DNA of 64,000 nucleotides from Spirochaetia bacterium (GTDB lineage Bacteria; Spirochaetota; Spirochaetia; SZUA-6; Bin103), in the NCBI GenBank assembly GCA_965208575.1, contig CBDBOV010000006.1, forward strand, positions 736,001 through 800,000, in the 5' to 3' direction. The stretch's first letter is position 1. The number at the start of each line of letters is the position of its first letter. Under the pieces are notes generated by a model. The model ran no database searches. It was not told the DNA's origin and saw nothing but the letters and a program-made list of their open reading frames with translations. This document shows, piece by piece, positions 30,679 to 64,000 of the stretch. The position numbers and the translations under genes were made by a program.

Positions 30679-31611
30679 CTACACCGACCTGGCGGCATCG
30701 GCACCGAGGCGACCACCACCACCCCTCAGCCGCGGGTCGAGCAGGTCGCGCATGGCGTCGCCGAACATGTTGAGGCTGTACACGGTGAGCGTCAGGCAGA
30801 GACCGGGCCAGAGGGCGAGCCATGGCGCCATTTCCATGTACTGGCGCCCCTCCCTGCTGAGCATGCCTCCCCAGCTCGGAGTCTTGAGTGGCAGGCCGAA
30901 CCCGAGGAAGCTCAGAGAAGCCTCAGAGATGATCACCCCGCCGATGTTGATGCTGAATATGATGATTACGACGGGCGTGATGTTGGGCAGGACATGGCGC
31001 ATGAGTGTTCTCCATTTTGACGAGCCAAGCGCCTCCGCCGCCTGAAAATAGATGTTTTCCTTGATGTCGATAACGGCGGCTCTCAACACTCTTGAGCCGC
31101 CGATGCCTCCTGCGATCCCGAGGACCATTATTATCTGTAGTACACCGCGCCCCACCAGGGACATTACGGTTAACAATATGAGCAGTCCGGGGAACGCCAT
31201 CCAGGCATCGACAAATCTCTGCACAGCGAGGTCCAACTTACCGCCCAGGAATCCTGAAATGCCGCCTATCAGGACCGCCACCACGACATTGAGAGCGGTC
31301 GCGGACAGACCGACAGCCAACGAGATACGAGCACCGTAGATAAGGCGGCTCAAGAAGTCTCGCCCCAACTGGTCGGTGCCCAGCAGATACTTGGCTGATG
31401 AGCCCTGCAGCCTGTCTATCAAGTGTTGTTCCCAATATGGATATGGTGTCAGGACATTGGCAAAGATAGCTACAAGAGCCAACAGCAATATGACAATCCC
31501 GGCGACAATACCCAGTGGCTTCTCGGTCCACATCCTGCGCAGGAAATTGGCCGTCAAGGAGCTCTTGTCTGGCTCATTTGGTGCTGATGGCAGCCCTGTG
31601 GCATTACTCAT
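30679..31611 (-). CDS. Peptide ABC permease, DppC type (cassette A)
   Basis: LLGTDQLGRD, EASLSFLGFG, DLLDPRLRGGG. Confidence 0.92.
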   Translation of the reverse strand: MSNATGLPSAPNEPDKSSLTANFLRRMWTEKPLGIVAGIVILLLALVAIFANVLTPYPYWEQHLIDRLQGSSAKYLLGTDQLGRDFLSRLIYGARISLAVGLSATALNVVVAVLIGGISGFLGGKLDLAVQRFVDAWMAFPGLLILLTVMSLVGRGVLQIIMVLGIAGGIGGSRVLRAAVIDIKENIYFQAAEALGSSKWRTLMRHVLPNITPVVIIIFSINIGGVIISEASLSFLGFGLPLKTPSWGGMLSREGRQYMEMAPWLALWPGLCLTLTVYSLNMFGDAMRDLLDPRLRGGGGRLGADAARSV

Positions 31612-31621
31612 ACTCGCTCCT

Positions 31622-32581
31622 TCACTTGTAGCGGACCCTGGGATCCAGAAAGGGATACATCAAGTCTATCATCAGATTTATCCCGATGACCGCCACGGCG
31701 AAAAACAAGTTTATTCCGGACACCACCGGGTAGTCTCTGTTATTGAGTGCCACCACCATGAGACGCCCCAACCCCGGCAGGTTGAAAATGTTCTCTATGA
31801 TAACGGAGCCACCCACCAGGATAGGCAACGACAAGCCGATCAGGGTAACCACCGGGATGAGGGCATTCTTGGTGGCGTGCCGCACCACCACTACCCGCTC
31901 ACTGAGGCCCTTTGACCAGGCAGTCCTGATGTAGTCCTGCCTGAGCACCTCAAGCATCATGGTGCGCGTCATCCGCATGGTGCTGGCCGACATGGCCGTG
32001 CCCAGAATCAGGCTGGGAATGATCAGCACCCCGAGATTTCCCAGCGGGTCGTCCGTGAAGGGCACCCACTCCATCGGGGGCGACCAGCCCCACCAGATTG
32101 CCGGATAGATCATCACCATGAGTGCCAGCCAGAAGTTGGGAGTTGCCAAGCCGATGATGGCGGCGGTGCGGCCCAGGTAGTCGGCGGCCGTGTCCTGTCG
32201 AATCGCCGAATAGATGCCGACGGGAACGGCTATCAGGAGCCCGATTATGATTGCCATGACACCAAGCTCCACGGTTACTGGCAATCTACCTATTATCCTC
32301 TCCTCGACCGTCCAACCGCCCCACAGCGATTCGCCGAGCGTACCGTGCAGGAAGAAATCTCCTACCCAGCGTCCATACTGAACGTAGACAGGAAGGTCCA
32401 GTCCGAGCTTGCGCTCAATAGCTTCGCGGTCTACGGTCCCACCAGCGTCCAACTCCATCTTGTCCACCATTATGTCTATTACATCCCCGGGGATGAAGCG
32501 GACCATGAAAAAGACTATGAGGGTCAACAACCATAAGGTGGGGATTATCAGCAATAGACGCCTGATGCTATAGGCTTTCAT
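31622..32581 (-). CDS. Peptide ABC permease, DppB type (cassette A)
   Basis: EVLRQDYIRTAWSKGL, DPRVRY. Confidence 0.92.
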   Translation of the reverse strand: MKAYSIRRLLLIIPTLWLLTLIVFFMVRFIPGDVIDIMVDKMELDAGGTVDREAIERKLGLDLPVYVQYGRWVGDFFLHGTLGESLWGGWTVEERIIGRLPVTVELGVMAIIIGLLIAVPVGIYSAIRQDTAADYLGRTAAIIGLATPNFWLALMVMIYPAIWWGWSPPMEWVPFTDDPLGNLGVLIIPSLILGTAMSASTMRMTRTMMLEVLRQDYIRTAWSKGLSERVVVVRHATKNALIPVVTLIGLSLPILVGGSVIIENIFNLPGLGRLMVVALNNRDYPVVSGINLFFAVAVIGINLMIDLMYPFLDPRVRYK

Positions 32582-32688
32582 GGCACACTCATCACTTCTT
32601 TTTCCCCGTCATGTCTTCGTCATTGAGGGTTACGCGCCGGTGTTCGCAGACCCGTGCCAATTTTCGTCGCGCTGAGCGGCAGACGGAG

Positions 32689-32724
32689 AGGAGAACCGGG
32701 CGGCTCAAGGCGCCCGGTTCTCCT
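32689..32724 (-). terminator. Stem-loop after the SBP gene
   Basis: AGGAGAACCGGGCG / CGCCCGGTTCTCCT perfect 14-bp arms. Confidence 0.65.
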
Positions 32725-32758
32725 GATCCTTGAGGTCGCGACAAGCGGTGAAACTCGC

Positions 32759-34546
32759 CTAATAGCCCATTGATTTCTTCAGCTCACTATCGATCCAGAG
32801 GCGGGCCGAGACGAAATTTGGATTAACAAACGCACTCAACTCACCGTTGTAACCCTTGACCCACGGCTGGAACGCTTCAAATGACGGATTTGCCGGACCC
32901 CATATGGCCCAGTGCCTCTCTACCGGATACATATCTGCCAACTTCGCCCACCGCTGCTGCTCCTCGATGGTGGTAGCGGCTGCGGCGGCTGCAAACAGGG
33001 CGTCATAGTCCGGGTCGTTCGCGGCGACACTATTGGCTGCCGCGGTGGTCAGGAAGCGGTCCGGAGCACTAAGCGGGTTAGCCAAGCTCCCATAGGCCAT
33101 TTCGTGTGACAGCATTTCGAAATCATAGTCTCTTCTCTTGGAGGCAAAAGGGCCTATCGGCGTCATCTGGACGTCGACCTCAACACCAATGTCACGCCAG
33201 TATCCGGCGAGTAGTTCATAGTAGCTCGGATCATACCGGTCCAGGACGGTATACACGCTCTTGAATCGAATCCCATCGGCGTCGCGAGGCACTCCGGCCT
33301 CATCAAGGAGCGCTTCTGCCCCTTCCGGGTCATAGTCATACGCTTTTTTCAGCTCGGCGGGCCACTCTTCAAACGGGACGAAATAGCCGATGGCAGCATC
33401 CCCTTGCTGTCCGTGAGGTGTCGTATCTCCATAACCCTTGAAGAAGACATTGTTGATCGTCTCCAGGTCCAGTGCCATCTGCATTGCCCGGCGCACCCTG
33501 ATGTCGGTAAAGGGCTCCTTGTTGATGTTGAGACCAGTAGCACCGGTCGAAGCACCGAGGTTCGTCCGCAGCTCGATTTCGGGGTTGGTCCGCTTGAGGC
33601 TCTCTGCCTGGTCGACGGACCTCAGTACACTTGCCCAACCGAGAAAGTCCACCTTGCCCGAGCGCAGTGCCGCTACCCGGGTTGCCTCTTCCGGCATGAT
33701 CGGGGCCCTTATTTCGTCAACGTAGGGTAGCCGGTTTTCCGGGTACTTTTCGTCGTAGCCCCAGTAGTCAGGATTCCTGGTATAGGTTACAACGGTGCCC
33801 TCGAGGTAGTCAGCCAGCTCGAAGGGTCCGGTGCCGACCAGGTTCCTCCAATCACTAACGTCTCCGTGTTCTCTGATTACGTCGGAGGGGTATATTTGGC
33901 CGGCGACGTCGAACAGGATAGCCCCCAGCCCATCCAGCCTGGTCTCCTGCAGCTTGAACACGACCGTCCATTTGTCGGTGGCCGTTATCGATTCCCATTT
34001 GAAGTTCTTCAAGACCCAGGCAAAGGCGCTCGGTTCGGTGAAGCCGCTGCCCGTACCCGTTACCCGGTGAAAGCTGTACTCGACGTCGTAGGCATCGAGC
34101 TCCCGACCGTTCATCGGGGCCTTGTCGTGCCAGTGAACGCCCTGGCGGATTTTCACGATAACGGTATTGATGTCGGGCTGCGACCAGCTCTCCACCAACT
34201 CCCCTTTCAGGGCAGATACCGGAGGACGCACTCTGAAGTCAAATTCGCTCCTGTCCATTCCCCAGTCCCCGGTGCCGAGCTTCTCCAATACGCCAGTGGT
34301 GAACATATGGTACCATCCCGAAAGCATGACATCAGGATTCGGACCCTCTTCATTCCAGGGCATGGTTATTGTCCCGCCATACTCTGGTGCCACCACCGGT
34401 TCGCCGGTGGTGGGGTCGGTCACATACCGCTTGTCGGCGCCGGCTGCCGGTGCCTCCTCCTCTGCGCCGGTGGCCCAGAGGCCGGTTGCGGTCAGAACCA
34501 GGACCAACGCAAGCGCGACGGTCCTGGTGCTTGCTACCAAATTCAT
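32759..34546 (-). CDS. Family 5 substrate-binding protein (cassette A)
   Basis: PEYGG, WHDKAPMNGR, GTGPF, DEKYPENRLPY, ARLWID. Confidence 0.92.
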   Translation of the reverse strand: MNLVASTRTVALALVLVLTATGLWATGAEEEAPAAGADKRYVTDPTTGEPVVAPEYGGTITMPWNEEGPNPDVMLSGWYHMFTTGVLEKLGTGDWGMDRSEFDFRVRPPVSALKGELVESWSQPDINTVIVKIRQGVHWHDKAPMNGRELDAYDVEYSFHRVTGTGSGFTEPSAFAWVLKNFKWESITATDKWTVVFKLQETRLDGLGAILFDVAGQIYPSDVIREHGDVSDWRNLVGTGPFELADYLEGTVVTYTRNPDYWGYDEKYPENRLPYVDEIRAPIMPEEATRVAALRSGKVDFLGWASVLRSVDQAESLKRTNPEIELRTNLGASTGATGLNINKEPFTDIRVRRAMQMALDLETINNVFFKGYGDTTPHGQQGDAAIGYFVPFEEWPAELKKAYDYDPEGAEALLDEAGVPRDADGIRFKSVYTVLDRYDPSYYELLAGYWRDIGVEVDVQMTPIGPFASKRRDYDFEMLSHEMAYGSLANPLSAPDRFLTTAAANSVAANDPDYDALFAAAAAATTIEEQQRWAKLADMYPVERHWAIWGPANPSFEAFQPWVKGYNGELSAFVNPNFVSARLWIDSELKKSMGY

Positions 34547-34735
34547 AGGTAACTCCGTTTGTTTGATTTCTGAGAGTATTGCGTAGCGGCTTACCGGATT
34601 ACCGCTCCCTGGCTACCCTCACGCCCGCAACGCGGGCGGCCACTGAGAGTCAACTGCGTAACGCGCGCGGCGTGTGACTCGGCCGGGTTCACGCCGCGCG
34701 CGTCCAGGGTTCCTTTAGTATCATTTTGCACCCCC
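34547..34735 (-). promoter_or_regulatory. Conserved structured 5' leader of SBP gene, copy A
   Basis: Homologous to 45937-46127 and 55713-55800; several stems. Confidence 0.6.
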
Positions 34736-35063
34736 GTTTCTGTGGACTTCGGCAATTCTCGGCGGGCGGTTGTCAGGGAAGGAGAGTGTCATAGTCGTTG
34801 ACGCACGTGAGCTGCACGATCACTTCTTGAAATGGAACACGATGAAAACCGATGCACAGGCATCGTCTGCCCGCCCGCCCTTTCGGACCAGGCACAGCCA
34901 TACCCAGATGTAACCGCGATTGACTGCATCCACCCCACTATGACATCCGCCCCGGTGGAGGTCAACCACGCGCATTGACTCATCAACATTGCCTACCTTG
35001 CCTACCCGACAGAGGCTGCCGGCACGAGGCCAGAATCATGACGAGCGCTATGTGGCCCCGACG

Positions 35064-36704
35064 TCAGCCGTCGGCCAGCTCGAACGCCGTCACGTTGCGC
35101 GTCCGGCGGCTGAGTTCCACTCCGATCAGGTGGATGGGCTCACCCCGCCCCCGGTACTTGTCCGCGTAGCCCCGCTCCCGCAACTGCGCCAGCGCCGACC
35201 CCGCCGCCGCCAGCTCGGCTACCTTGAACTCGAACAGGTACACGTGCCCGCCGGTCCTCACCGCCATGTCCAGGCGCCCGTGGCTGCTCGACTCCTCCAC
35301 CGCGATCTCGTACCCCAGCGCCGCGAAGTACGAATAGAAAACGCTCGCGTAGTACCCCTCGTACTGCGCGATATCGTTGTTTGTGTGCCATTCGTAGGGA
35401 ATGCTCGCGAAGAACGCGTGGAACAGCTCCTGCAGCCCCGCGCAGTCGTGCGTGGAAAGCAGCCGTTGCAGCCGCATGCTGTTCGCCGTCTGCTGCTCCA
35501 CGTCCTGCACCAAGTGGCGCAGCAGGTGCTCGTTCAGGCTCTGGCGCACCTCCCGGTTCGGGTAGCCCAACCGATACAGCACCTTGCCGCCCAGCTCCTC
35601 TTCCCCCGTTACCGTCAGGTAACCGGTCTGGAACAGCAACGCCTGCGTGCCGATCTGGCCCACGTCGAACCTCGACAGCAGTTCCATCGTTCCCACCATT
35701 CGGTCCAGCGACACCGACGCCACCCGCCGCTCGAACAGCAGGTCCACCAGAAACGCCGGCGTCCCGGTCTCGAACCAGTGCGCGGCAAACTCGCGGCTGT
35801 CGAACAGCAGCAGCACGTCGTACGGGTTGTACACCTTCTCCTCGCCGCGCCAGCGGTAGCCGTTGTACCACTCGCGGATCCGTTCCCGGTCCAGCCCGGC
35901 CAGTTCCGGCGCGAACACCGTGTCCAGATCCGCGTCCGTGTAGCCGCAGATTGACGAGTAGCGCCGATCCAACGTGAGATCTGTGAGATTGTTCAACTGC
36001 GAGAAGAGCGCCCCACCGGCGGCGCCTTCGGCCTCGCCGGTGGCCCATCCCGTCCTTCCGCCCAAGAAACTTCCACGGAAGTGTCTTGGGCGGTTTACCT
36101 TGGAGAACTTGCTGATGCCGGTGAGGAACGTGAACCGCACGTGGGCGTCCGAGTCCTTGATCACCCCGTACAGCCCGCGCAGGTAGTCGCGGTTGGCACG
36201 CGCCGCCTCGGGTTCCTCCAACGCGTCCAGGATCGGCTTGTCGTACTCGTCCACCAGCACCACCACCCGCTGCCCCGTCTGCCGATGCAGCGTGCGCAAC
36301 AGACGGCGCAAGCGCGGCGCCGCGCCGCCGTCGTGGGATGCAATGCCCGCCGCCTCCTCCAGGTCCTGCAACTGGAATGCCACGTCCTCGTGCAGCGTCG
36401 CGGGCTCGGTGAAGCTGCCGCTGCCGAAGCTCAGCCGCACCACCGGATGCCGCTCCGACCAATCGTGGCGGTCGTGGATGTAGAGCCCCGCGAACAACGC
36501 CTCGTTGCCCTCGAACAGCTCCTTCAGCGTGTCCAGAAACAAGCTCTTGCCGAACCGCCGGGGCCGCGACAGGAAGTAATGTGTGCCCCCGCGGAGCAAC
36601 CGCTCGATGAAGGCGGTCTTGTCCACGTAGTAGCAGTCCTGCTCCCGCAGCTTGCGGAACGTCTGTATCCCGATCGGCAGTCTGCGCCGCGCCACCGGTT
36701 TCAT
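35064..36704 (-). CDS. AAA-ATPase-like + PD-(D/E)XK nuclease protein
   Basis: LPIGIQTF, YVDKT, SRPRRFGKS, VLVDEYDKP, C-terminal GRLD...FEFK; carries a 28-aa in-frame insert. Confidence 0.88.
   Translation of the reverse strand: MKPVARRRLPIGIQTFRKLREQDCYYVDKTAFIERLLRGGTHYFLSRPRRFGKSLFLDTLKELFEGNEALFAGLYIHDRHDWSERHPVVRLSFGSGSFTEPATLHEDVAFQLQDLEEAAGIASHDGGAAPRLRRLLRTLHRQTGQRVVVLVDEYDKPILDALEEPEAARANRDYLRGLYGVIKDSDAHVRFTFLTGISKFSKVNRPRHFRGSFLGGRTGWATGEAEGAAGGALFSQLNNLTDLTLDRRYSSICGYTDADLDTVFAPELAGLDRERIREWYNGYRWRGEEKVYNPYDVLLLFDSREFAAHWFETGTPAFLVDLLFERRVASVSLDRMVGTMELLSRFDVGQIGTQALLFQTGYLTVTGEEELGGKVLYRLGYPNREVRQSLNEHLLRHLVQDVEQQTANSMRLQRLLSTHDCAGLQELFHAFFASIPYEWHTNNDIAQYEGYYASVFYSYFAALGYEIAVEESSSHGRLDMAVRTGGHVYLFEFKVAELAAAGSALAQLRERGYADKYRGRGEPIHLIGVELSRRTRNVTAFELADG
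36009..36092. repeat. 84-bp double-hairpin element inserted in frame
   Basis: CCACCGGCG...CGCCGGTGG and CCGCCCAAGA-AACTTCC...GGAAGT-G-TCTTGGGCGG; interrupts SKFSKVx|LFSxLNN. Confidence 0.75.
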
Positions 36705-39044: not shown

Positions 39045-39236
39045 GCCTATGCCTTCATCGCTTCACTCTACCGAGTCACCCTGGCACACCACCGGGCGCC
39101 CCGTCAACTCGCTCATCGTCACGCGGCGGTGGCGGATGGGTCGCGCTGGTGCGGCAATCCTGCCGTCCCTGCCGTCCCCGCCTGCCGTGTGGGGGTTGAC
39201 GGATCGGGCGGTTGACGCTTATGTGGGGCCGTGCCG

Positions 39237-40286: not shown

Positions 40287-40310
40287 AGTAGGGTAATGAA
40301 GGAGCGTGCG

Positions 40311-41162: not shown

Positions 41163-41204
41163 CCGGCACGCGGACAGCAACGGAAACGACAAGGAGGAGA
41201 GACC

Positions 41205-45936: not shown

Positions 45937-46127
45937 GCGTAACTCCATATATGGATTTCTTGAGAGTATTACGAAGCGACTTGTCGCTCCCTGGCTACTC
46001 TCACGCCGGCAACGCAGGCGGCCAGTCAGAGTCCAACTCACTAACAGCGCGCGGCGGGTGACTCACCGGGTTCACCCGGGCTCACGCCGCGCGCGCGTGC
46101 GGTTCTTTCAGTATCATCCTGCACCCT
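45937..46127 (-). promoter_or_regulatory. Conserved structured 5' leader of SBP gene, copy B
   Basis: Homologous to 34547-34735. Confidence 0.6.
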
Positions 46128-46426
46128 TGGGGTGAGGCCGCCGTAGGAGGCGGCGCAAGGTCACGCCGGGGGCGCCAGTATCGCGAGGCGTCTCGGGACC
46201 GGCTCGGCGACTCGAAAGGGCCGGCGCCACCAATAGCTGCGGCGACTGCGGCGGTGGTAAACGCGACGGCGTGCGCGGGGCTGCGCACGCCGCGGTCATC
46301 CGGAGCGGGTAGCTGTTTCTCGTATAAAGAGTTACGGGGGGGCTGATGCTTCACTGCGAGCCGGCAACGGCGCTGACTATCTTTCCGGCACGATGCGCCC
46401 ATCTATCAATTGCCCCAGTCAACCGT

Positions 46427-47844: not shown

Positions 47845-47851
47845 GGTTGGC

Positions 47852-48467: not shown

Positions 48468-49883
<1,416 letters not shown>

Positions 49884-49969
49884 AAGTGATCGACGTACTG
49901 ACCGTGGCTGCCTGACTGCCCTTCAACCGGGGCTTCGGCGTTGTCCCGAGCAGGGGGGAGGGTGCGCGG

Positions 49970-52822: not shown

Positions 52823-52825
52823 CCG

Positions 52826-53912: not shown

Positions 53913-55712
53913 CTAATTCCCCATCGTTGCTTGCTTCAGCTCACTATCAATCCAGAGGCGGGCCAAGAAGGTATTACGTTCACCACGTCCCATACCTGCT
54001 TCACCGAAATAACCCTCGACCCACGGCTGGCTCACGTGGAACTTGGGGGCGTTGGATTTGACCAGACCCCAGTGCTCCCTTATCGTGATCTCATCGACCT
54101 GTCGATGCAAGCTCTTCCACTCCTCCAGGGTGGTGGCAGCTTGCATGGCGGCAAACAGGGCGTCAGTTACCGGGTCGTTCCCCTTCGCCTTGTTCTTTTG
54201 GTGTTGTTGAGTCAGGTAACCGGCGCCGCCGAGTATCCCATATGCCCAATCCCCTAACGCCCACTCGTGCGTGTCCGCGCCATGTATAGCGGAAATCTCA
54301 GCGGCAGTATGGGCAAAAAGCTCGCTGTCAACTCCAATGGCTTCGAAGTACCCCATGACGATTTCACCATACGTCGGATCGTACCGGTCGAAATGGGAGA
54401 TCTTGAGCTTGAATCGATAGCCATCGGCGCCGCGCGGATATCCAGCCGCATCAAGCAACGCTTCCGCGTCATCCGGGTGATACTCATACTCATGCTTGAC
54501 CTCGTCGGGCCACTCTTCATATGGCCAGGAAAACTCCCCTGGGCCATCTTGCTGTACTAACCCATACGGTGCTGGATCTCCCCAACCCTTAAGGAAGGTG
54601 GCGGAAATCGTCTCGCGGTCCACTGCCATCTGCAGTGCCTTGCGCACATCGACGTCGCTAGTGGGTGACAAAGCCCAGTTAAAAAAGTATGCGCCCGCTA
54701 TCCAGCTATAAACGGGCCACACCTCGATTTCAGGGTTGGTCCGCTGGAGGCTCTCCAAATCGTCGATATTGTATATGACAGCGTCGCCGGTGTTACTCAG
54801 CATATCAATCTTTCCCGTGCGCATTGCCGCCAGACGTGCTGACATGTCCGGTATCAGCAAGGACCTCAATTCGTCAATATAGGGTAGGCGGTTTTCCGGG
54901 AATTTTTCGTCGTAACCCCAGTAGTCAGGATTCTTCTCCCAGGTTGCCGAGCTGCCCTCCACGAAATCAGTCAGTCGAAAGGGCCCGGTGCCGACCACGT
55001 TCCGCCAATCCTTGGCGTCGCCGTATTTCTCGATTTGCTCAGGGGCGTGCGCAACCCAGTAGTTGTTGAGCATTTTCCCCAGCCCATCGGGGTGAGACTG
55101 CTTCAGCTTGATCTCAACCGTCCATTGGTCGGTGGCCGTTACCGATTCGAACTGTAGACCGAAGAAGATAACACCCGCACTGGGGCTAGGTCCGTCTTCC
55201 GTGAAATCGCCCAGACCCAAATAGCGGTGATAGTTCCATTCGACGTCATGGGCATCGAACTCCCGACCGTTCACCGGCGCCTTGTCATGCCAGTGAACGC
55301 CCTGGCGGATGTTCCAGATGAACGTTGTGTCGTCGGGCATTGACCAGCTTTCAGCCAGAGCCCCTGTAGTCATCTCCGGGGTCACAATGCGGGAGTCTCT
55401 ACCGCCCCATATATCCCTGGTGAGTCCCCAGTCGGCGAAGGACAGCCCCTCATTGACGCCACTGATCACGTGAGCCGCCCAGCCAGGTTTCCACCAGTTG
55501 TCAATACCGGGAGGAAAGACAACAACGCCCTGCGTGATTGTCCCGCCATACTGTGGCGCGGTCCACGTCATGCCGGTGGCGGGGTCGAACACCGTTTCCT
55601 TCTCGGTAGCCGCCGCCGGCTCCTCTACTGCGGCAGCGGCCCAGAGGCCGGTGGCGGTCAGGACCATGACCAACGCAACCGCGAAGGTCCTGGTGATTGT
55701 TACCATATTCAT
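53913..55712 (-). CDS. Family 5 substrate-binding protein (cassette C)
   Basis: PQYGG, WHDKAPVNGR, GTGPF, ARLWID. Confidence 0.92.
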   Translation of the reverse strand: MNMVTITRTFAVALVMVLTATGLWAAAAVEEPAAATEKETVFDPATGMTWTAPQYGGTITQGVVVFPPGIDNWWKPGWAAHVISGVNEGLSFADWGLTRDIWGGRDSRIVTPEMTTGALAESWSMPDDTTFIWNIRQGVHWHDKAPVNGREFDAHDVEWNYHRYLGLGDFTEDGPSPSAGVIFFGLQFESVTATDQWTVEIKLKQSHPDGLGKMLNNYWVAHAPEQIEKYGDAKDWRNVVGTGPFRLTDFVEGSSATWEKNPDYWGYDEKFPENRLPYIDELRSLLIPDMSARLAAMRTGKIDMLSNTGDAVIYNIDDLESLQRTNPEIEVWPVYSWIAGAYFFNWALSPTSDVDVRKALQMAVDRETISATFLKGWGDPAPYGLVQQDGPGEFSWPYEEWPDEVKHEYEYHPDDAEALLDAAGYPRGADGYRFKLKISHFDRYDPTYGEIVMGYFEAIGVDSELFAHTAAEISAIHGADTHEWALGDWAYGILGGAGYLTQQHQKNKAKGNDPVTDALFAAMQAATTLEEWKSLHRQVDEITIREHWGLVKSNAPKFHVSQPWVEGYFGEAGMGRGERNTFLARLWIDSELKQATMGN

Positions 55713-55800
55713 ACGTAACTCCGTATGTTGATTTCTGAGAGTATTGCGTAGCGGCTTGCCGCTCCCCGGCTACTCTCGCGCCCGCAACGCGGGCGGCCGG
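55713..55800 (-). promoter_or_regulatory. Conserved structured 5' leader of SBP gene, copy C (proximal half)
   Basis: Homologous to 34547-34640 and 45937-46025. Confidence 0.6.
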
Positions 55801-56016
55801 CCAGTCCGGGGGGACGCGCCGGCTGCCTCGGTGCCAACCGGCCACGGCGCTGACTGTCATTTCGGCACGATGTGCCCATTTATCGATTGGCCCCAGTGCA
55901 ACGAATGCTCACACGCGCGGGCAAACGTGTCAACCACCCACCCGTCGCGGCGGCCTGCCGCTGGAGGTTGTCGAGGTTTTTGACCAGTGAGCCGCGCCTC
56001 TGCTACTGTGGTTGGC

Positions 56017-56116
56017 ATGGCGGCGTGGAGATTCGCGCATCCAGTGCTACAACGGCCCGGCGGATGAAGACCATTGGATTCGCTTCGAGAACTTCTGCAT
56101 CAAGCGACTAGCGTAA
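56017..56116 (+). pseudogene. Skeleton of the ConA-like gene (47852-48418)
   Basis: ATG jumps to 47958, then to about 48339; 100 of 567 bp remain. Confidence 0.88.
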
Positions 56117-56165
56117 CAATGTTGACCGTCGGCTCCCGCAACCTGCCGGAGTGCCCTGAACTGTC

Positions 56166-56628
56166 GTGAGCGAAGACCTTCACTACGCACCATTGCCGGG
56201 GTCGCGGCGCTCATCAGGGCGCAGCGGCTGTCGCCGGTGGAGCTGACCAGGAGCGTACTGGCCCGCATCGACCGGCTCGACAGCGATCTGCACAGCTACG
56301 CCACGGTGATGGAGGAGCAGGCGCTGTCGAGCACATCGATGTCCTTGCCTGCCCAGCCATGCCCGATCTCCCCTTCCCGGTCACACCGGAAGCGCTGCGC
56401 TCCTCGCCGCCGGTCGTCGACGAGGGCGTCTTTCGGCTGCAGCGGTTCACGGTGCCGTTCGACTACAACGGCGCGCCGACGCTCACGCTGCCGTGCGGAC
56501 TGAGCAGCGAGGGGTTGCCCCTGGCGCTGCAACTGGCCGGCAAACCGCTCGCCGAGCCGCTGCTGTGCCGGCTCGGCGCCGCCTACGAAGCCGCCACCGA
56601 GTGGCACGACCTGCATCCCGGCCGGTAG
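56166..56628 (+). pseudogene. Skeleton of the amidase (48468-49883)
   Basis: 5' end joined at 56326/56327 to the 3' end; about 950 bp including the catalytic motifs are missing; 1-bp deletion near the start. Confidence 0.9.
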
Positions 56629-56655
56629 AAGTGATCGACGTACTTGCCATCGCCA

Positions 56656-56850: not shown

Positions 56851-56913
56851 AGGTGGGTCCTGTCTTGACGTACGAGCCGCACGCCATGATGCTGGACGGT
56901 GCCGAGGGGACCC

Positions 56914-58119
56914 GTGGCAGATACTATCCTGAGCCGGCTGGTATTCCAGCGCTTCCGCAGCCTTGCCAAGGAAGAGGTGAAGTTTGATAACCCGACCTTT
57001 CTGATCGGTCAGAACGGCTGTGGCAAGAGCAACTTCAGCGATGCAATTGCCTTCCTTGCGGAGGCGATGGCGTCTCCACTGCAAGCTGTCCTTGAGCATC
57101 GCGGGGGATTTGCTGCGGTCAGTCATCGAGGTTCGGCGAGAGGCCGCTCGAACATGGGGCTCGCCGTCGAGCTTCATGATCCGGGTGCCGACATGAGCGA
57201 GGCTCGGTATGGCATAGAGTTGCGCGCGTCAACCGGTAGTGGGTTCCAGGTCGTACGCGAGCAGTGCGTGGTGACGCGACTGAATGGGTCCATTGCCTCG
57301 TTTGACCGCAGACCGGTCAACGGCTCCGTGGGCTGGAAGAGCAGTGTAAAATCCCTGGACCCCATTGTGGAACCGAATGCGTTGGCGCTTCCTCTGGTCG
57401 GTGGCGACGCGCGCTTTCGGCCGGTTTTCCGTCTTCTATCGGATATGCGGGTGTGTCGGATCGAACCGGCGGCCGTTCGCGCTTTGCAGGACCCGGACGG
57501 CGGCGTACGGCTGCAAGCCGACGGTAGCAACGCCGCCAGCGTGCTCCGGGAGATCCAACGACAATCCGCGACGGATTGGAAACGAATATGCGAACTTCTC
57601 CAATGTGTCGTCCCCGGAACCGTCGGCGTCCAGCTCAAGAGGCACGGCAACAAGCTGACCTTGGCGTTTAGTCAAGAGTGGGGAAAGTCGGCTCCGGTGA
57701 AGTTCGAAGCATTCAACATGTCAGACGGCACGCTTCGTGTGCTGGGCATCCTCGCAGCAATCTTCCAACGGCCGGCTCCCTCCCTTATCGTAATTGAAGA
57801 ACCGGAAGCTACCGTGCATCCGGGCGCCATAGGGACGATTCTCGACGTATTGCGGCACGCGGGACGCTTCATGCAGGTCGTGGTGACGACGCACAGTCCC
57901 GATGTTCTCGATGCCCAGTGGATTGAGGATCGACACCTCCGCATCGCGAGTTGGGAGAGAGGCATTACCCGGGTCAGTACTGTCTCGCCTTCCGTTAGAG
58001 CGGCCCTTCGCGAGCACCTGATGGGTGCAGGTGAGTTGCTTCGTTCGAACGCCATGGCGGCGGCAAAAGAGTCGGATTCCGACAAGAGACGGTTTGAGTT
58101 GTTCGTCAAGGCCATGTGA
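56914..58119 (+). CDS. ABC-type ATPase (AAA_21/AAA_15; RloA/AbiEii-like)
   Basis: LIGQNGCGKSN, MSDGTLR, IEEPEATVHP, TTHSP. Confidence 0.88.
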   Translation: MADTILSRLVFQRFRSLAKEEVKFDNPTFLIGQNGCGKSNFSDAIAFLAEAMASPLQAVLEHRGGFAAVSHRGSARGRSNMGLAVELHDPGADMSEARYGIELRASTGSGFQVVREQCVVTRLNGSIASFDRRPVNGSVGWKSSVKSLDPIVEPNALALPLVGGDARFRPVFRLLSDMRVCRIEPAAVRALQDPDGGVRLQADGSNAASVLREIQRQSATDWKRICELLQCVVPGTVGVQLKRHGNKLTLAFSQEWGKSAPVKFEAFNMSDGTLRVLGILAAIFQRPAPSLIVIEEPEATVHPGAIGTILDVLRHAGRFMQVVVTTHSPDVLDAQWIEDRHLRIASWERGITRVSTVSPSVRAALREHLMGAGELLRSNAMAAAKESDSDKRRFELFVKAM

Positions 58120-58120
58120 G

Positions 58121-58620
58121 ATGCGAATCCAGCCGATCGTGGAGGGGCATGGAGATGTGGCGGCTCTGCCGGTATTGTTGCGCCGTCTGATCAAGGAAGC
58201 CCAAACCTGGAGCGTCGATGTCGGGCGACCGATACGAGTGCCGCGGGGGAAGATCGTGCAGCAGGCTGAAGTGGAGCGTGCGGTCCGACTGGCGCTTCTT
58301 CAACCGGAGTGCGGCGCTGTTCTCATCCTCTTCGACGGAGACAGAGACTGCCCGGCGCGATTGGGGCCGTCCGTACAGACGTGGGCGGCAGCACGAGCGG
58401 GCAACGTGCCGTGCAGTGTCGTTATCGCCCATCGGGAGTACGAGGCGTGGTTTCTGGCTGCAATAGAGTCGCTACGCGGCTATCGCGGTGTCCGGGACGA
58501 TGCGGAAACACATCCGAATCCGGAAGGCCCTCTTTGTGCGAAGGGACAGATGGAAGCACGAATGCACGCGGACGCAAGCTATCTCGAACGTATTGACCAG
58601 CCGGCGCTCAGCGCCCGGGC
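58121..58620 (+). pseudogene. DUF4276 (TOPRIM-like) protein, 3'-truncated
   Basis: IVEGHGD, FDGDRDCP, REYEAWFLA, DQPALSA, then runs into an antisense dppC remnant (frame stays open to 59023). Confidence 0.75.
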
Positions 58621-58795
58621 TCAGTGCGACCGTTCCAGCTTCTGCAGCGCCTTCCGGGCGCGCTCGGCGGCGCGGGCACCTACGCCGCCGGCCACCGAGC
58701 CACCGCCGCCACGCAGCCGCGGGTCGAGCCGGCGCAGCAGGTCGCGCCGAAACGACTGCCTCTTCGCCCCCTTCGCCGGTGGCGCCTGTGGCGCG
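58621..58795 (-). pseudogene. Skeleton of a DppC-type permease (in-frame N-C fusion)
   Basis: KRQSFRRDLLRRL|DPRLRGGGGSVAGG...ARKALQKLERSH*, matching both termini of the 3228-4229 protein. Confidence 0.78.
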
Positions 58796-59034
58796 AGTTC
58801 CAGGTCACCAGGAAGTCGCATCTGTGAAAGGATGCCAGTGCCAAGTGCAGCGCATCACCACCCGGATCGGCGGGCATCACCTTGTGCCGGATGTACGTCT
58901 GCACGATCTCGCCGATGGCCGGCTCAACGGGCACCAGCGGCAGGTCATGAACGAGGACCTGCCGCTGCGCACTGCGCTCCGGTATATCGCCAACCAGTTC
59001 ATCCAGTACGGCCGCGCTGGTGACCAGTTCTCGT
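58796..59034 (-). pseudogene. Internal fragment of a PIN-domain toxin
   Basis: ELVTSAAVLDEL...DALHLALASFHRCDFLVTWN. Confidence 0.75.
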
Positions 59035-59445
59035 ATCCCGCACCGCATCGCCAAACATGTTCAGGCAGTAAACGGTGAGAGTCAGAGCGAGACCAGGCCA
59101 CAGAGCCAGCCATGGGGCAATTTCCATGAACTGACGCCCTTCCCGCTGAGCATGCCACCCCAGCTCGGAACACTCGGCGGCAGACCGAATCCGAGAAAGC
59201 TCAAGGACGCCTCGCTGATGATCACTCCACCGATGTTGATGGTGAATATGACGATTACGACCGGCATGATATTGGGCAGGACGTGTCGGATGAATGTTCT
59301 CCATTTTGAGGAGCCGACCGACTCCGCCGCATCAAAATACGCATTCTCCTTTATGTCGATAACGGCTCCCGCACGCGGTACCCAGTGGCTTCGTCCGCCA
59401 CATCCTGGTAAGGAAATCAGCGAAGTTGTTGCGGTCTCTATTCAT
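59035..59445 (-). pseudogene. DppC-type permease pseudogene (cassette D)
   Basis: MNRD...KPLGTACG jumps to GAVIDIKEN near 59370; frameshift near 59145; ends at GDAVRD. Confidence 0.88.
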
Positions 59446-60442
59446 AGCGGACCCTGGGGTCCAAGTATGGATAAACCAGGTCAATCGCCAGATTGATCCC
59501 GATGACCGCGGTGGCGAACAATAGGTTGATTCCGGAAACCACTGGGTAGTCCCTCGCATTGAGGGCAAGCACGAAGACACGACCTATCCCCGGCAGGTTG
59601 AAGATGTTCTCCATGATAACGGAGCCGCCTACCAGGATAGGCATCTGCAGGCCGATCAGCGTAACCACCGGGATGAGGGCATTCTTGACGGCGTGCCTGA
59701 TAACAACTGCCCTCTCCTTGAGTCCTTTTGACCAGGCGGTCCTGATATAGTCTTGCCTGAGCACCTCCAGCATCATGGTGCGCGTCATCCGCATTGTGGC
59801 TGCAGCCATGCCCGTCCCCAGAATCAGGCTGGGAATGATGAACACCCCCAGATTCTCCAGCGGCCCTTCGGTGAAACGAAACCACTCCATCGGTGGTGAC
59901 CAGCCCCACCAGACTACCGGGTAGACCATGACCATGGTTCCGAGCCAGAAGTTAGGCGCTGCCAGGCCGATGATGGCAACGGAGCGCCCCGCGTAGTCGG
60001 CCGCCGTATCCTGGCGAATCGCAGCGTAGATGCCGACTGGCAGCGCGATCACCAGCCCAATCACGATTGCCAGGAAGCCAAGCTCGATGGTTACCGGCAA
60101 TCTACCGACTATCTTCCTCGCTACCGGCAAACGGCCGCTTACCAGCGAGCGCCCGAGGCTGCCCTGAAGGAGACCCGTGAAATGAGACTCACCGGTACGC
60201 CAGTCAGGGGTCGGCAACACTCCTATCCAGCGTCCATACTGCACGTGGACGGGCACGTCCAGTCCCAGCATACGCTCGAGAGGTTCACGGTCCCTGCCGC
60301 CCGCTCTGTACACCGCCGCTTCAGACTCCATTACGTCGATGACATCGCCGGGGATGAAGCGCACCGAGAGGAAGACCAGGATGCTCAATATAAACAAGGT
60401 GGGGATTATCAGCAATAACCGCCTGATGATGTAGGCTCTCAT
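59438..60442 (-). CDS. Peptide ABC permease, DppB type (cassette D), intact
   Basis: Full length, EVLRQDYIRTAWSKGL. Confidence 0.9.
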   Translation of the reverse strand: MRAYIIRRLLLIIPTLFILSILVFLSVRFIPGDVIDVMESEAAVYRAGGRDREPLERMLGLDVPVHVQYGRWIGVLPTPDWRTGESHFTGLLQGSLGRSLVSGRLPVARKIVGRLPVTIELGFLAIVIGLVIALPVGIYAAIRQDTAADYAGRSVAIIGLAAPNFWLGTMVMVYPVVWWGWSPPMEWFRFTEGPLENLGVFIIPSLILGTGMAAATMRMTRTMMLEVLRQDYIRTAWSKGLKERAVVIRHAVKNALIPVVTLIGLQMPILVGGSVIMENIFNLPGIGRVFVLALNARDYPVVSGINLLFATAVIGINLAIDLVYPYLDPRVRYE

Positions 60443-60456
60443 ATCCTTCGTGGTAA

Positions 60457-60492
60457 AAGGGCGCCGGGAAGCCCGAGGCTCCCGGCGCCCTT
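60457..60492 (-). terminator. Stem-loop between the SBP remnant and dppB
   Basis: AAGGGCGCCGGGA / TCCCGGCGCCCTT. Confidence 0.6.
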
Positions 60493-60574
60493 CGATGCAG
60501 CCAGAACGAGCGCGAAAACGCTCGTGGACCCCGCCCCTAGGCGCGGTCCCGGCTGCAACGCCGCAGGCGTCGCG

Positions 60575-60730
60575 TCAGAAACCCATTCCTCTCTTCAGAT
60601 CCTGGTCGATCCAGAGGCGAGGAACGACGACTCCAGCGTCTATCGTTTCACCGTTAAAGCCAGTGACCCACGGCTGCGTCACAGTAAATACCAGCGCTCT
60701 ACCAAGCCATAGATGCCAGTGGTTCTCTAC
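60575..60730 (-). pseudogene. C-terminal remnant of a family 5 SBP (cassette D)
   Basis: VENHWHLW...QPWVTGFNGE...PRLWIDQDLKRGMGF*. Confidence 0.85.
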
Positions 60731-60956
60731 GGGGCGGTCAGCCGGAGCGGTGAGTTTGGTTCAAAAAGGTTGCCCCGCCGGGGGGGGGGGCAGGATGCAC
60801 TGGCTGCGTCACAACTAACCGGTCACTGCGCTTACGCCATCCTTGCGCGTCATCGGGGTCACCGGGGTGAGCGAAGGTCACCGGCAACCCGTCACTGCGC
60901 TGACTGTCATCATGACGCTTCATCAGCATCCGTCGCCCCAGGCGAGGCACGCTAGC

Positions 60957-60986
60957 ACGTTAGCATAGGCGCGGCGCGCCTGTCAA
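60957..60986 (-). promoter_or_regulatory. Putative promoter, diverged homolog of 46427/55905
   Basis: TTGACA-N18-TAACGT with extended TG; nearby GCGCTGACTGTCAT shared with about 55847. Confidence 0.45.
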
Positions 60987-61030
60987 CGACTCGGCGGTCA
61001 CCGGGGGGTCACCGGGTGCGATCAGCACGA

Positions 61031-61114
61031 TCAGCCCGCGCCGCCGGCGCAGCGGCGCCCGCCACCCCTGAGCCTCGGGTCCAGCAGGTCCCGCACCGCG
61101 TCGCCGGTCAGGTT
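61031..61114 (-). pseudogene. 3' remnant of a DppC-type permease
   Basis: NLTGDAVRDLLDPRLRGGGRRCAGGAG*. Confidence 0.8.
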
Positions 61115-61116
61115 GC

Positions 61117-61203
61117 TCAGTGGGGTTCGGCTCGAAACACCGGAATCCGGCGCTCGGTCTTGTTACCGACGTGCGTCGCCACGATTACCGGCAGCCCGAT
61201 CAT
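61117..61203 (-). pseudogene. Probable skeleton of a deazaflavin (F420)-dependent nitroreductase (DDN-like)
   Basis: GLPVIVATHVGNKT|ERRIPVFRAEPH*: N-proximal and C-terminal family motifs joined at KT. Confidence 0.5.
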
Positions 61204-61263
61204 TTGTGCTCACGAGCTATGAGGTACGGTCGCACTATGCTTGAATAGACCATTGAGGTCGAA

Positions 61264-61292
61264 TGGACGAATACATGGTACTCGTGTATCGT
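61264..61292 (+). promoter_or_regulatory. higBA promoter with overlapping palindromic operator
   Basis: TGGACG-N17-TATCGT; ATACA-N9-TGTAT at 61271-61289. Confidence 0.5.
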
Positions 61293-61310
61293 GTAACCGG
61301 TCAGGCAGAA

Positions 61311-61601
61311 ATGATACAGTCCTTTGCCGATGAGACGACCGCGGATCTGTTTCGTGAGCGCAACACGCGTCAATCGAGACGGATTCCACGAGATGTCTGG
61401 CGCGCCGCGCAACGGAAGCTGAAGGCCTTGGACGTGGCGGCCGGGCTCGACGACCTGCGGACTCCCGCGGGCAATCGACTGGAACGGTTGCGCGGTGCAC
61501 AGCCCGAACGGTACAGCATGAGAGTCAACGATCAGTACCGCCTGACGTTTCGATGGGAGGATGGCCATGCCTACGAGGTCTGCGTCGAAGACTATCACTA
61601 G
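61311..61601 (+). CDS. higB: HigB toxin (RelE superfamily)
   Basis: MIQSFAD..T..LF, RKL..LD, GNRLERL.G, YSMRVNDQYRLTF.W, DYH. Confidence 0.9.
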   Translation: MIQSFADETTADLFRERNTRQSRRIPRDVWRAAQRKLKALDVAAGLDDLRTPAGNRLERLRGAQPERYSMRVNDQYRLTFRWEDGHAYEVCVEDYH

Positions 61602-61869
61602 AGACCCGAGTTGGCTCGGGCCGGCGATTTCTCCGGGCGAGATGTTGCTCGAGGAGTTCATCAAGCCACTCGGTCTGCGTCAGAAGGATGCGGCGCGGCA
61701 GCTTGGGATTTCGTTGAATCGGCTGAACGAAGTGGTGCGCGGCCGGCGGCGCATCACCGCGGACACGGCGATAAGATTGTCGAGCCTGTTGCAAACCTCT
61801 CCGCAGTTCTGGATGCGGCTGCAGGCGGACTGGGACCTGCACCAAGCCCTGGAGCGCACCGCGTCGTAG
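61561..61869 (+). CDS. higA: HigA antitoxin (XRE HTH)
   Basis: PGEMLLEEF, G.RRIT.DTA.RL, TSPQFWMRLQ..WDL; start uncertain. Confidence 0.88.
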   Translation: MAMPTRSASKTITRDPSWLGPAISPGEMLLEEFIKPLGLRQKDAARQLGISLNRLNEVVRGRRRITADTAIRLSSLLQTSPQFWMRLQADWDLHQALERTAS

Positions 61870-61996: not shown

Positions 61997-62093
61997 GTGA
62001 AGCGGACCGCGCTGCTGCGTCACCTCCGTCGCCACGGTTGCTGCCTGAAGCGTGAGGGCAGGTCCCACTCGCTGTGGGGAGAATCCGCTGACC
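61997..62093 (+). pseudogene. HicA toxin N-terminal remnant, preceded by possible last codons of hicB
   Basis: MKRTALLRHLRRHGCCLKREGRSHSLW, then a frameshifted ENPLT; upstream TVILE* overlaps via GTGA. Confidence 0.72.
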
Positions 62094-62100
62094 GAGGAGC

Positions 62101-62838
62101 TTAAACCGATCTGGCGGCATCGGCGCCGAGACGACCGCCGCCACCGCGCAGCCGCGGGTCGAGCAGGTCTCTGAGGGCGTCACCCAACATGTTGAAACTG
62201 TACACCACGGTCGTCAGGCACAGCCCCGGCCAGAGCGCCAGCCAGGGGGCCTGCTCCATGTACTTGCGCCCTTCCCGGCTGAGCATGCCGCCCCAGTCAG
62301 GAATGCCCGGTGGCAGACCGTAGCCGAGGAAGCCCAGAGCAGCCAACGACATGATCACCCCACCGATGTTGATCGAGAACACAATGATGACCGGTGCCAT
62401 GATGTTGGGCAGGACATGGCGGCTCAGGATCTTGCTGGTGGGGGTGCCCACGGCCTGGGCCGCCAGAAAATAGTCGTTCTCCTTGATACCGATCACCGCG
62501 CTTCTCATGACCCTCGAGCCGCTGATGCCTCCGGCGATCCCCAGGACCACGATGATCTGGGGGAGACCCCTTCCCACAATGGACATGATGGTGAGCAAGA
62601 GCAGCAATCCCGGAAACGCCATCCAGGCATCGACAAAGCGCTGCACCGCCAGATCCAATCTACCCCCAAGGAATCCGGAAGTGCCGCCGACCAGGACAGC
62701 GACGACGATATTCAGCGCAGTCGCGGCCACACCGACGAGGACGGAGATACGAGCCCCGAAGATCAGCCGGCTGAGCAAGTCTCGTCCCGCCTGGTCGGTA
62801 CCCAGAAGATACTGCGACGACGGACCTGCAAGCCTGTC
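62101..62838 (-). pseudogene. DppC-type permease lacking its 5' end (cassette E, copy of C)
   Basis: About ten substitutions versus 51920-52645; 488-bp deletion at 62838/62839. Confidence 0.9.
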
Positions 62839-63369
62839 TATAGTCCTGCCGGAGCACCTCCAGCATCATGGTGCGCGTCATCCGCATCGTGCTGGCAGCA
62901 AGGGCGGTGCCCAGAATCAGGGCCGGAATCAGAAACATCCCGAGATTCCCCAGCGGGTCTTCGGCGAACGGAATCAGCTCTATCGGCGGCGACCAGCCCC
63001 ACCAGATTGCGGGGTAGAGCATGACCATGACTCCGAGCCAGAAGTTCGGCGTTGCCAAGCCGATGATGGCGGCGGTGCGCCCTACGTAATCGGCGACGGT
63101 GTCCTGGCGGATCGCCGAGTAGACGCCGACGGGCAGGGCTATGACCAGCCCGATTACGATTGCCAGGGCACCAAGCTCGATGGTTACCGGCAATCTCCCG
63201 ATGATGATCTCCTCTATCGGAAAAGGAGCGCCAAACAGTGATTCGCCAAAGGTGCCCTGGAGGAAACCTCTGAAGTGGGACTCACCGGTAATCCAGTCAG
63301 GGGTCGGCAACACTCCTAGCCAGCGTCCATACTGCACGTAGACCGGCACGTCCAGTCCCAGCATACGCT
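62839..63369 (-). pseudogene. Internal fragment of DppB-type permease (cassette E)
   Basis: Near-identical to 53134-53664; both ends deleted (180-bp deletion removes the start). Confidence 0.9.
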
Positions 63370-63437
63370 TACCCCAAGTATGGGAGCTGGGAAGCGCGCT
63401 CGCAAGCGCCCGCCACCCAGCTCCGCAAGAGTTACTG

Positions 63438-64000
63438 CTAATTCCCCATCGTTGCTTGCTTCAGCTCACTATCAATCCAGAGGCGGGCCAGGTGGGTATT
63501 ACGTTCGCCGTTTCCCATCCCTGCTTCACCGAAATATCCCTGCACCCATGGCTGGCTCACGGAGAACCAGGGGGAGCTGGATTTAACGAGGGCCCAGTGC
63601 TCCCTTACCGTGATCTCATCGGCCTGCCTGATAAGACTCTTGAACTCCTCAAGGTCGGTGGTCTCGATGGCGGCAAGATGCAGGGCGTCGATACGCGGGT
63701 CCGTCGCCTTGTTGTGGCTTCTCCCATCAAAGCTCTGGCTTATCCATGTCAGGTTGGTTCCGCTGCTGCCAAACCAGCCATAATAACTGGCCACAAACTC
63801 ATACTCGTGCGTGTCCGCATTCAACAAAGCCCCTGACTCAGCGCTAGTCTGTATAAACAGCTCGCTGTCAACGCCAATGGCATCCAGGTACCCCATGACG
63901 AGTTCCGGATAGGTCGGCTCGTACCTGCTGAACTGGGCAATCTCGACCTTGAATCTATAGCCGTCGTCGCCGCGCGGATATCCGGCCGCATCAAGGAGTT
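63438..64000 (-). CDS. Family 5 substrate-binding protein (cassette E), C-terminal part; continues beyond the window
   Basis: AAGYPRGDDGYRF...REHW...SQPWVQGYFGE...ARLWIDSELKQATMGN*. Confidence 0.88.
   Translation of the reverse strand, partial: LLDAAGYPRGDDGYRFKVEIAQFSRYEPTYPELVMGYLDAIGVDSELFIQTSAESGALLNADTHEYEFVASYYGWFGSSGTNLTWISQSFDGRSHNKATDPRIDALHLAAIETTDLEEFKSLIRQADEITVREHWALVKSSSPWFSVSQPWVQGYFGEAGMGNGERNTHLARLWIDSELKQATMGN

Follow-up and report, generated by a model that had tools for sequence, protein, structure and literature searches.

A genome-wide family of ATPase-less Dpp/Opp-type importer modules, probably exchanged among bacteria, sampled in a 64-kb stretch of a Spirochaetia genome

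In the Escherichia coli-type importers DppABCDF and OppABCDF (PepT), the ATPase genes are encoded with those of the permeases. Among other uptake systems, one homodimeric multitask ATPase (MsmX, MsiK, or MsmK) serves sugar importers, about a dozen systems or fewer, and the Bug/TctC receptors of Bordetella form very large families of substrate-binding proteins (SBPs) that far outnumber the membrane parts. Multitask ATPases serving type I ATP-binding cassette (ABC) importers are established (PMC7658222), and in the Opp system of Borrelia burgdorferi five SBPs and two permease heterodimers work with a single heterodimeric ATPase (PMC5736914). Here we analyse a stretch of 64,000 nucleotides (nt), hereafter the window (positions 736,001 to 800,000 of contig CBDBOV010000006.1; G000:C6:736001-800000), from a metagenome-assembled Spirochaetia genome (G000; 6.50 Mb in six contigs, 67% guanine plus cytosine (GC), 95% complete) that carries repeated cassettes of an SBP gene and two permease genes, dppB and dppC. 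Positions given below without a contig label are those of the window. Our overall account, to which we assign a probability of roughly two in three, is that these cassettes belong to a genome-wide family of about 100 modules, each made of a leader, an SBP, a DppB, and a DppC without ATPases of their own, which are exchanged and in which the SBP block is swapped.

Importer modules in the genome and in the window

What the window holds is one portion of a family of about 100 importer modules found throughout the genome, and not a special local device, because 81 intact SBP-dppB-dppC triples are spread over all six contigs, against 14 DppD/DppF pairs (28 oligo_HPY matches) in the genome. Hidden Markov models (HMMs) built from the window genes and run on all six-frame open reading frames (ORFs) gave 217 ORF matches to family-5 SBPs (SBP5), and PF00496 was scored at 133 places among 219 candidates. 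The cassette family itself counts 111 SBP, 117 DppB, and 103 DppC copies that are full-length and stop-free, a ratio of about 1:1:1. Twelve of the 14 DppD/DppF pairs are part of, or neighbours to, complete operons from other subfamilies, and the remaining two are an orphan pair (C2:725540-727608) and a pair convergent to a dppB-dppC-SBP set (C1:420715-422759). Around the 81 cassettes, DppD/DppF-type ORFs number none within 3 kb, two within 5 kb, and four within 10 kb. The arrangement found is an SBP-permease operon without an ATPase gene, and not the PepT one of ATPase genes encoded with the permeases.

The window was mapped with Pfam scans (29 ORFs in the first 29.5 kb and 42 in the remainder), tblastn of cassette proteins, and a six-frame HMM scan. 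Together these identify cassettes A, B, and C as intact, on the minus strand, and in the order SBP-dppB-dppC: A with dppC at 30679-31611, dppB at 31622-32581, and SBP at 32759-34546; B with dppC at 42069-43001, dppB at 43011-44024, and SBP at 44110-45936 (a start set by homology, the open frame extending to a GTG at 46041); and C with dppC at 51917-52822, dppB at 52826-53836, and SBP at 53913-55712. The three SBPs match SBP_bac_5 (PF00496) at E values of 1e-57 to 1e-63 and are family-5 (cluster C) proteins, and each cassette has two distinct permeases, one DppB-like (BPD_transp_1_N and BPD_transp_1) and one DppC-like (OppC_N and BPD_transp_1). The repeats stand far above chance (tblastn E values of 1e-99 to 1e-168), with cassette SBPs 46-50% and permeases 69-74% identical within the window. 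Cassette A has a GC content of 0.57-0.59 against about 0.68 in its surroundings, and a GC at third codon positions (GC3) of 0.75 in dppB. Neither ABC_tran nor oligo_HPY was found in any of the 42 ORFs scanned in 29.5-64 kb. The preliminary description of this DNA, made from its letters, had listed at least five co-oriented SBP-dppB-dppC cassettes, A to E, without dppD or dppF and with D and E eroding, all of which our scans bear out.

Cassettes A, B, C, and E share a leader composed of a promoter-like box, a short upstream ORF starting MILKEP (lacking in C), GC-rich hairpins, and a motif preceding the Shine-Dalgarno site (pre-SD). All the leaders lie on the minus strand. That of A (34547-34735) has the MILKEP ORF, the hairpins, and the pre-SD motif; that of B (45937-46480) has a promoter-like TTGACA box at 46455 and the upstream ORF at 46117; and that of C (55713-55951) has a promoter box at 55933. 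The leader segments recognised in the window are 34580-34735, 46022-46133, and 55745-55797. Genome-wide, the upstream-ORF motif has 34 matches with at most two mismatches, every one of them within 800 nt upstream of a same-strand SBP5 gene, and in cross-lineage blastn the conservation of the leader is limited to the genus. By its make-up, the leader looks like a leader-peptide or attenuator-type control.

The preliminary description had proposed that the locus is a special SBP library: a dedicated local array in which SBPs diversify and share a few translocators and ATPases, with redundant permeases lost after duplication. The state of cassettes D and E speaks for such an array. Cassette E (minus strand) has a dppC at 62104-62841 without its first ~58 residues and an internal fragment of dppB at 62822-63418, the truncations being due to two deletions (488 and 180 nt) when compared with C (self-blastn). 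Its SBP, which starts at 63438 and continues past the window end (64000), is intact with an open frame of 645 amino acids (aa) and a full leader. E thus keeps its SBP and leader with broken permeases, while a 98% identical permease pair lies 9 kb off in C. Moreover, the genome holds about twice as many remnants of dppC as of SBP or of dppB (34 partial pieces vs 17 and 16). The permeases are nevertheless normally kept, as the full-length copy numbers and the 81 full triples imply, and they are under purifying selection; the sharing of translocators after permease loss fits cassette E only. In D (58993-61018, minus strand; Pfam, tblastn, and HMM scan) it is the SBP that was lost and dppB that was kept: dppB is intact (59438-60442), whereas only ~55 C-terminal residues of the SBP (60578-60736) and a leader remnant (60737-61018) are left, and dppC is reduced to model positions 178-299 split over two frames (58993-59369). 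In every covering contig of three RNA runs (93% alignment), an extra G follows position 59144, within this frameshifted dppC; this change of frame may be peculiar to the strain or an error of assembly, and the 5' truncation of the gene stands regardless.

The origin of the cassettes also tells against a local array. For each of A, B, C, and D, the closest paralogue sits elsewhere in the genome (DppB_C is 85% identical to C6:978189 and SBP_B 65% to C6:926683), and C and E are the only close pair within the window, with permeases 98.1-98.6% identical in nt, SBP 3' ends 77% identical, and whole SBPs 71.5% identical in aa. Local duplication did occur: the leader of C is followed on the minus strand by a copy of the region upstream of B, including an amidase remnant (56037-56644), so that the 0.8 kb upstream of C (55824-56644) represent a copy, decayed by deletion, of the 3.5 kb that precede B (46347-49899), in four blocks 83.6-95.6% identical, against ~73% between cassettes B and C themselves (self-blastn). 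The array as a whole was not locally made, because the nearest paralogues of A-D lie elsewhere; with these and with cassettes on all six contigs, we regard a dedicated local array as unlikely. Apart from the pieces in D and E, a single dppC remnant was found (61034-61115, minus strand; HMM model positions 281-302, with blastn matches to many dppC 3' ends), and not the three extra ones that had been described. It is the sole leftover of a lost cassette.

Turnover of modules and mosaic binding-protein genes

The backbone genes ADH-PhyH-SDR (39231-42041), which lie between cassettes A and B, are present in congeners at 85-96% identity, and the 29-40 kb around them were compared in five. Cassette content at this syntenic site differs in all five. 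G006 carries cassette B in the same place (96.8% nt identity) and no cassette A. In G003, the SDR gene lies directly before an AAA_14 gene, with an unrelated 165-nt spacer instead of the 4.5 kb of cassette B and its leader; relative to G003, the cassette B junction has no target duplication. G001 has cassette C at the syntenic place (97% nt) and, nearer the SDR gene, a dppC remnant alone, and G007 and G009 carry other, lower-scoring cassettes. Genome comparison shows that modules come and go between congeners and decay by deletion. Fixed cassette content among relatives, which the preliminary description had named as evidence against turnover, is not what these genomes display, and its proposal that cassettes are renewed by duplication, recombination, and decay is borne out by the decayed copy of the B flank before C and by the mosaics described below, in C/E and genome-wide.

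A separate observation concerns the nearest congener, G006: in its copy of cassette B (G006:C92:20858-21811; L089/L090), the permeases are intact and the 5' half of the SBP is gone together with the leader (window 45066-46472, 1.4 kb), a loss opposite in kind to the decay of cassette E.

The repeats might also be an assembly chimera of several strains, a danger that had been pointed out earlier. The sequence comes from a metagenome-assembled genome with 5.75% estimated contamination, and the permeases of C and E are 98% identical. However, independent assemblies carry B (G006) and C (G001) beside the same backbone genes; sponge-metagenome contigs of another study (X5) match the stretch with 2-5 differences per 540-1403 nt, one of them spanning 60973-61833, the gap between D and E with its dppC remnant; and low-GC cassettes alternate with high-GC backbone within one 1.66-Mb contig. 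A chimera is therefore hardly credible as an explanation.

Among the 81 cassettes, median pairwise identity is 0.45 for SBP, 0.70 for DppB, and 0.67 for DppC (maxima 0.79, 0.99, and 1.00), and only 16 have the same nearest neighbour for all three genes. Six pairs of the closest type were profiled along their nt sequence. The SBP forms a diverged block in each of the six (mostly 65-90% identical), the permeases being 84-100% identical (96-100% in the dppC part) and the leader likewise in most pairs. The C/E pair shows the same break between permeases and SBP 3' end. In C5:184877 / C5:200043 the high identity extends into the flanks, about 2 kb on the upstream side and about 1 kb on the downstream side being 98-100% identical as well. 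In recent pairs, identity is 96-100% for the leader and permeases and about 80% for the SBP block. Synonymous divergence (dS) in the two closest pairs is 0.29-0.45 for the SBP and 0-0.07 for the permeases, a difference that point mutation after duplication cannot explain; the ratio of nonsynonymous to synonymous divergence (dN/dS) of these SBPs is 0.33-0.59.

Comparison between species points to the origin of the diverged blocks. SBP_C differs from its counterpart in G001 by a dS of 0.015, its permeases by 0.12-0.14, and backbone genes by 0.19-0.25. For the SBP at C5:184877, identity is 97% in G005, whose SDR backbone gene is 82% identical, and at most 80% in the nearer relatives G006 and G001. 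These values argue that SBP blocks have been imported between species. The conserved leader and the 5' end of dppB may act as homology arms, SBP alleles would be exchanged through recombination for those of other cassettes, in the same genome or another, and each new SBP would broaden the range of substrates imported.

The same mosaics could in part be the product of concerted evolution without any import, if intragenomic conversion homogenised the leaders and permeases of old duplicates and the SBPs, diverged or diversifying, escaped it. The pattern of conserved permeases and diverged SBP in all six profiled pairs is what such a process would leave; SBP dN/dS (0.33-0.61) lies above that of the permeases; and a donor was missing for one of the two SBPs tested, the partner SBP of C5:184877 having no allele above 82% in 10 congeners. 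Against it, C5:184877 / C5:200043 has the appearance of a segment of over 7 kb that was duplicated recently and had its SBP block replaced, two separate conversion tracts being less likely as the cause, and SBP_C and the second SBP are far more alike between species than their flanks, so that import of SBPs is needed. Concerted evolution alone is thus a real but less probable alternative to an account that includes SBP import, though a stronger one than a local array.

Two other sources of SBP divergence were set aside. Diversity-generating retroelements alter a short variable region, and the diverged block here is ~2.2 kb long and evenly 70-90% identical, with dS of 0.29-0.45; this origin was rejected on these grounds, no search for such elements having been made. 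Positive selection alone was rejected as the cause because synonymous divergence is high too.

Distribution across bacterial lineages

A scan with one genome per species yielded at least 515 matching stretches, 509 of which were confirmed as relatives. In 68 loci whose DppB is 62-78% identical to DppB_A (L001-L068), the order is always SBP-dppB-dppC, and no high-scoring DppD/DppF was found in them within the flanks retrieved (at most 6 kb to either side, and less where a contig ended); two carry low-scoring ATPase-like pieces. Ten loci, L069-L078, are more remote (56-66% identical). In six of them, those with 56-59% identity, ATPase genes follow the SBP, three in the order dppB-dppC-SBP followed by two ATPase genes and three as dppB-dppC-SBP-SBP and one ATPase gene, with the second cut by the locus end.

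The composition of the modules is independent of the host. Close loci have a dppB GC3 of 0.68-0.79 despite flank GC of about 0.46, 0.48, 0.60-0.64, and 0.66, and rpoB GC3 in those host genomes runs from 0.53 to 0.92. RpoB identity is 47-55% between G000 and G031, ~52% (main segment) between G000 and either G033 or G034, and 53% between G031 and G033; across lineages with RpoB identities of 47-55%, DppB is 72-80% identical. Four other genomes hold at least 84, 112, 45, and 29 DppB_A-like genes, with 21, 18, 12, and 16 oligo_HPY matches, respectively. Nearer to G000 the distribution is patchy. Among 30 relatives checked at a cut-off of E <=1e-115, cassette-type DppB occurs in eight of 10 congeners (1 to at least 72 copies), in none of the eight sister-genus genomes, and as one copy each in two of 12 genomes of other families. 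Judged by orthologue comparisons, the genome that carries L003 behaves as a congener. In a FastTree phylogeny of 251 DppB rows, the hosts are interleaved, their labels requiring 68 changes (the minimum being 8 and the mean after shuffling 82.9), and the supported branches by themselves impose 9-15 changes on each of the three other genomes with the best sampling. Because of the patchy distribution, the host-independent composition, and identities far above those of RpoB, the only reasonable reading of these comparisons is that the cassette family has been horizontally exchanged between deeply unrelated bacteria.

An ordinary, vertically inherited paralogue family, in which the absence of ATPases is meaningless or many copies are dead relics, would have some points in its favour. 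Passages of PMC6306507 report large ABC repertoires in sponge-associated bacteria, namely Chloroflexi that encode many ABC transporters including oligopeptide ones, and ~13-24% of the family pieces in G000 are partial. Such inheritance is, however, at odds with a family found in none of the eight sister-genus genomes and abundant in two other deep lineages with ~50% RpoB identity, and with a composition independent of the host. Relics would not have intact frames and low dN/dS, and the nearest complete operons do carry two ATPase genes. We consider this explanation very unlikely.

The bacteria carrying these cassettes are probably sponge symbionts. A bolder version of our account, which we offer only tentatively and with the odds somewhat against it, is that at least three deeply separated lineages of sponge microbiomes share a circulating pool of ATPase-less modules, in which a leader-permease chassis receives hot-swappable SBPs and a few DppD/DppF pairs power about 100 translocators per cell. 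Through such a pool, the community as a whole would own a library of receptors for dissolved organic compounds.

Energy supply, genomic surroundings, and known systems

The dppB and dppC genes of cassettes B and C have dN/dS values of 0.04-0.26 against congeners, and the 3' part of SBP_B has 0.09; these values resemble those of backbone genes (0.03-0.36). Codon-level comparison shows that the modules are intact and under purifying selection. Since they lack a cis ATPase and are yet under such selection, we infer, as the best reading, that their ATPases are supplied in trans, as had been proposed earlier. A few resident DppD/DppF pairs would then power the cassette permease pairs. The best candidate partner appears to be the pair at C1:420715-422759, followed by the orphan C2:725540-727608. 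In L069, L072, L073, and L076, the complete operons closest to the cassettes, the ATPases best match the C1 pair (55-61%), and C1 DppD has one clear orthologue in each of five cassette-bearing genomes tested (93, 71, 70, 62, and 60%), with next matches of at most 53%. Cross-lineage orthologues of the orphan C2 pair are weaker (90, 64, 63, 56, and 57%).

Besides the contamination estimate, the missing donor allele, and the partial alternative of gene conversion discussed above, several observations weigh against our account. The C1 pair is found in all 10 congeners and three of eight sister-genus genomes, including G009 and G010, which have few or no cassettes, and is therefore not specific to the cassette family; it has the appearance of a resident pair that may have been co-opted. 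The EAA coupling loop hardly varies among the 117 copies of DppB but is variable among the 103 of DppC, a mixed outcome that does not favour one common ATPase dimer. The link of any ATPase to the cassette permeases is drawn from sequence. Finally, neither mobility genes nor conserved end repeats were found at the cassettes. The scan of 71 ORFs in the window turned up a single mobility gene, for an IS3-type transposase split over two frames (HTH_Tnp_1 followed by rve; 12872-14046, plus strand), which is not adjacent to any cassette. Signs of an integron-like array (a recombinase, end sites) were not found at the cassettes, though no genome-wide search aimed at integrases was made. Cross-lineage nt homology stops at the dppC stop and the SBP start, with nothing conserved beyond the coding parts (blastn). 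A riboswitch or tRNA-linked island was rejected, as Rfam and tRNA scans of the window were empty.

The searches of NCBIfam and PDB sequences yielded no substrate assignment for the cassettes: the best NCBIfam matches of the permeases are Opp, Nik, and Gsi, all under their equivalog cut-offs, and the SBPs of solved structure that come closest bind peptides, dipeptides, heme, and opines (E values of 1e-23 to 1e-17). RNA-library contigs of three studies align to the cassettes, including two on SBP_C (274 and 203 nt, 3 differences each), and the inter-cassette stretch 56.0-58.7 kb is almost bare of them; as the contigs were aligned at 93% identity in the presence of numerous paralogues and of further organisms, we do not count these contigs as shown transcription.

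Other Dpp-type genes of the window stand apart from the cassettes. A related set noted in the preliminary description at 2266-8025 is real and older (Pfam), with dppB at 2266-3222 and dppC at 3228-4229 on the plus strand, two SBPs at 4336-6186 and 6256-8025 on the minus strand, and no ATPase. Its permeases are 56-64% and its SBPs 38-43% identical to those of A-D (tblastn), and it is host-like in composition (dppB GC3 0.95). The absence of ATPases holds for the cassettes but not for the window, where a complete dppABCDF-type operon of a distant subfamily had been missed at 17035-23312 (minus strand, Pfam): SBP at 21327-23312, dppB at 20251-21234, dppC at ~19106-20240, dppD at ~18075-19121, and dppF at 17035-18156. 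Both of its ATPases have ABC_tran and oligo_HPY, and its proteins are 25-33% identical to those of the cassettes (tblastn).

Genes for an amidase, a dioxygenase, and dehydrogenases adjoin the cassettes. Five of the 10 amidase homologues of the genome lie within 3 kb of a cassette gene, a proximity that may hint at the substrate class. Genes with AAA-ATPase_like and PDDEXK_9 domains adjoin cassettes A and C (35064-36700 and 49970-51763, minus strand), and 15 of 32 such homologues genome-wide lie within 3 kb of a cassette gene, a zone that makes up 16% of the genome. Between cassettes C and D, an AAA_21 ATPase gene is followed by a DUF4276 gene (56899-59023, plus strand; Pfam), a pair that we take to be defence-like. 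A dispersed ~90-nt repeat at 34804-34900 has at least 28 copies of at least 60 nt, 75-84% identical, on all six contigs, and tandem repeats 81-92% identical (14489-14982) lie inside a coiled-coil-like ORF (14384-15175).

In the literature searched, some 100 ATPase-less Dpp-type modules per genome, their exchange across lineages, and the replacement of their SBP blocks are not described; only general statements on many ABC transporters in sponge-associated bacteria were found. If a few ATPase pairs do serve about 100 Dpp/Opp-type translocators, this would be an enormous case of ATPase sharing; we know of no larger one, and within the Dpp/Opp family the two permease pairs of Borrelia are, to our knowledge, the prior maximum. 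The spread over unrelated bacteria, the host-independent composition, and the repeated replacement of the SBP alone point to a traded trait, one that would set which dissolved compounds these probable sponge symbionts import. The roughly 100 natural SBP variants on one chassis could be used for ligand discovery, and the cassettes could serve as a test bed for how the specificity between permease and ATPase stays loose.

The cassettes resemble the E. coli-type Dpp/Opp importers in their family-5 SBP, their DppB-like and DppC-like permeases, and their domain make-up, and differ from them in lacking dppD and dppF in the operon, in their ~100 copies per genome, and in scoring below all NCBIfam equivalog cut-offs. 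With the importers served by multitask ATPases they share an SBP-permease operon without an ATPase gene and, presumably, energising from elsewhere; unlike those sugar importers, they are of Dpp/Opp type, need a DppD/DppF-type pair, and form ~100 systems. Borrelia Opp is a precedent for ATPase sharing within the Dpp/Opp family, from which the cassettes differ as ~100 complete modules, horizontally exchanged in all probability, with mosaic SBP blocks. Like Bug/TctC, they include a huge family of paralogous binding proteins, but these do not outnumber the membrane components (111:117:103), nearly every SBP keeping its own permease pair.

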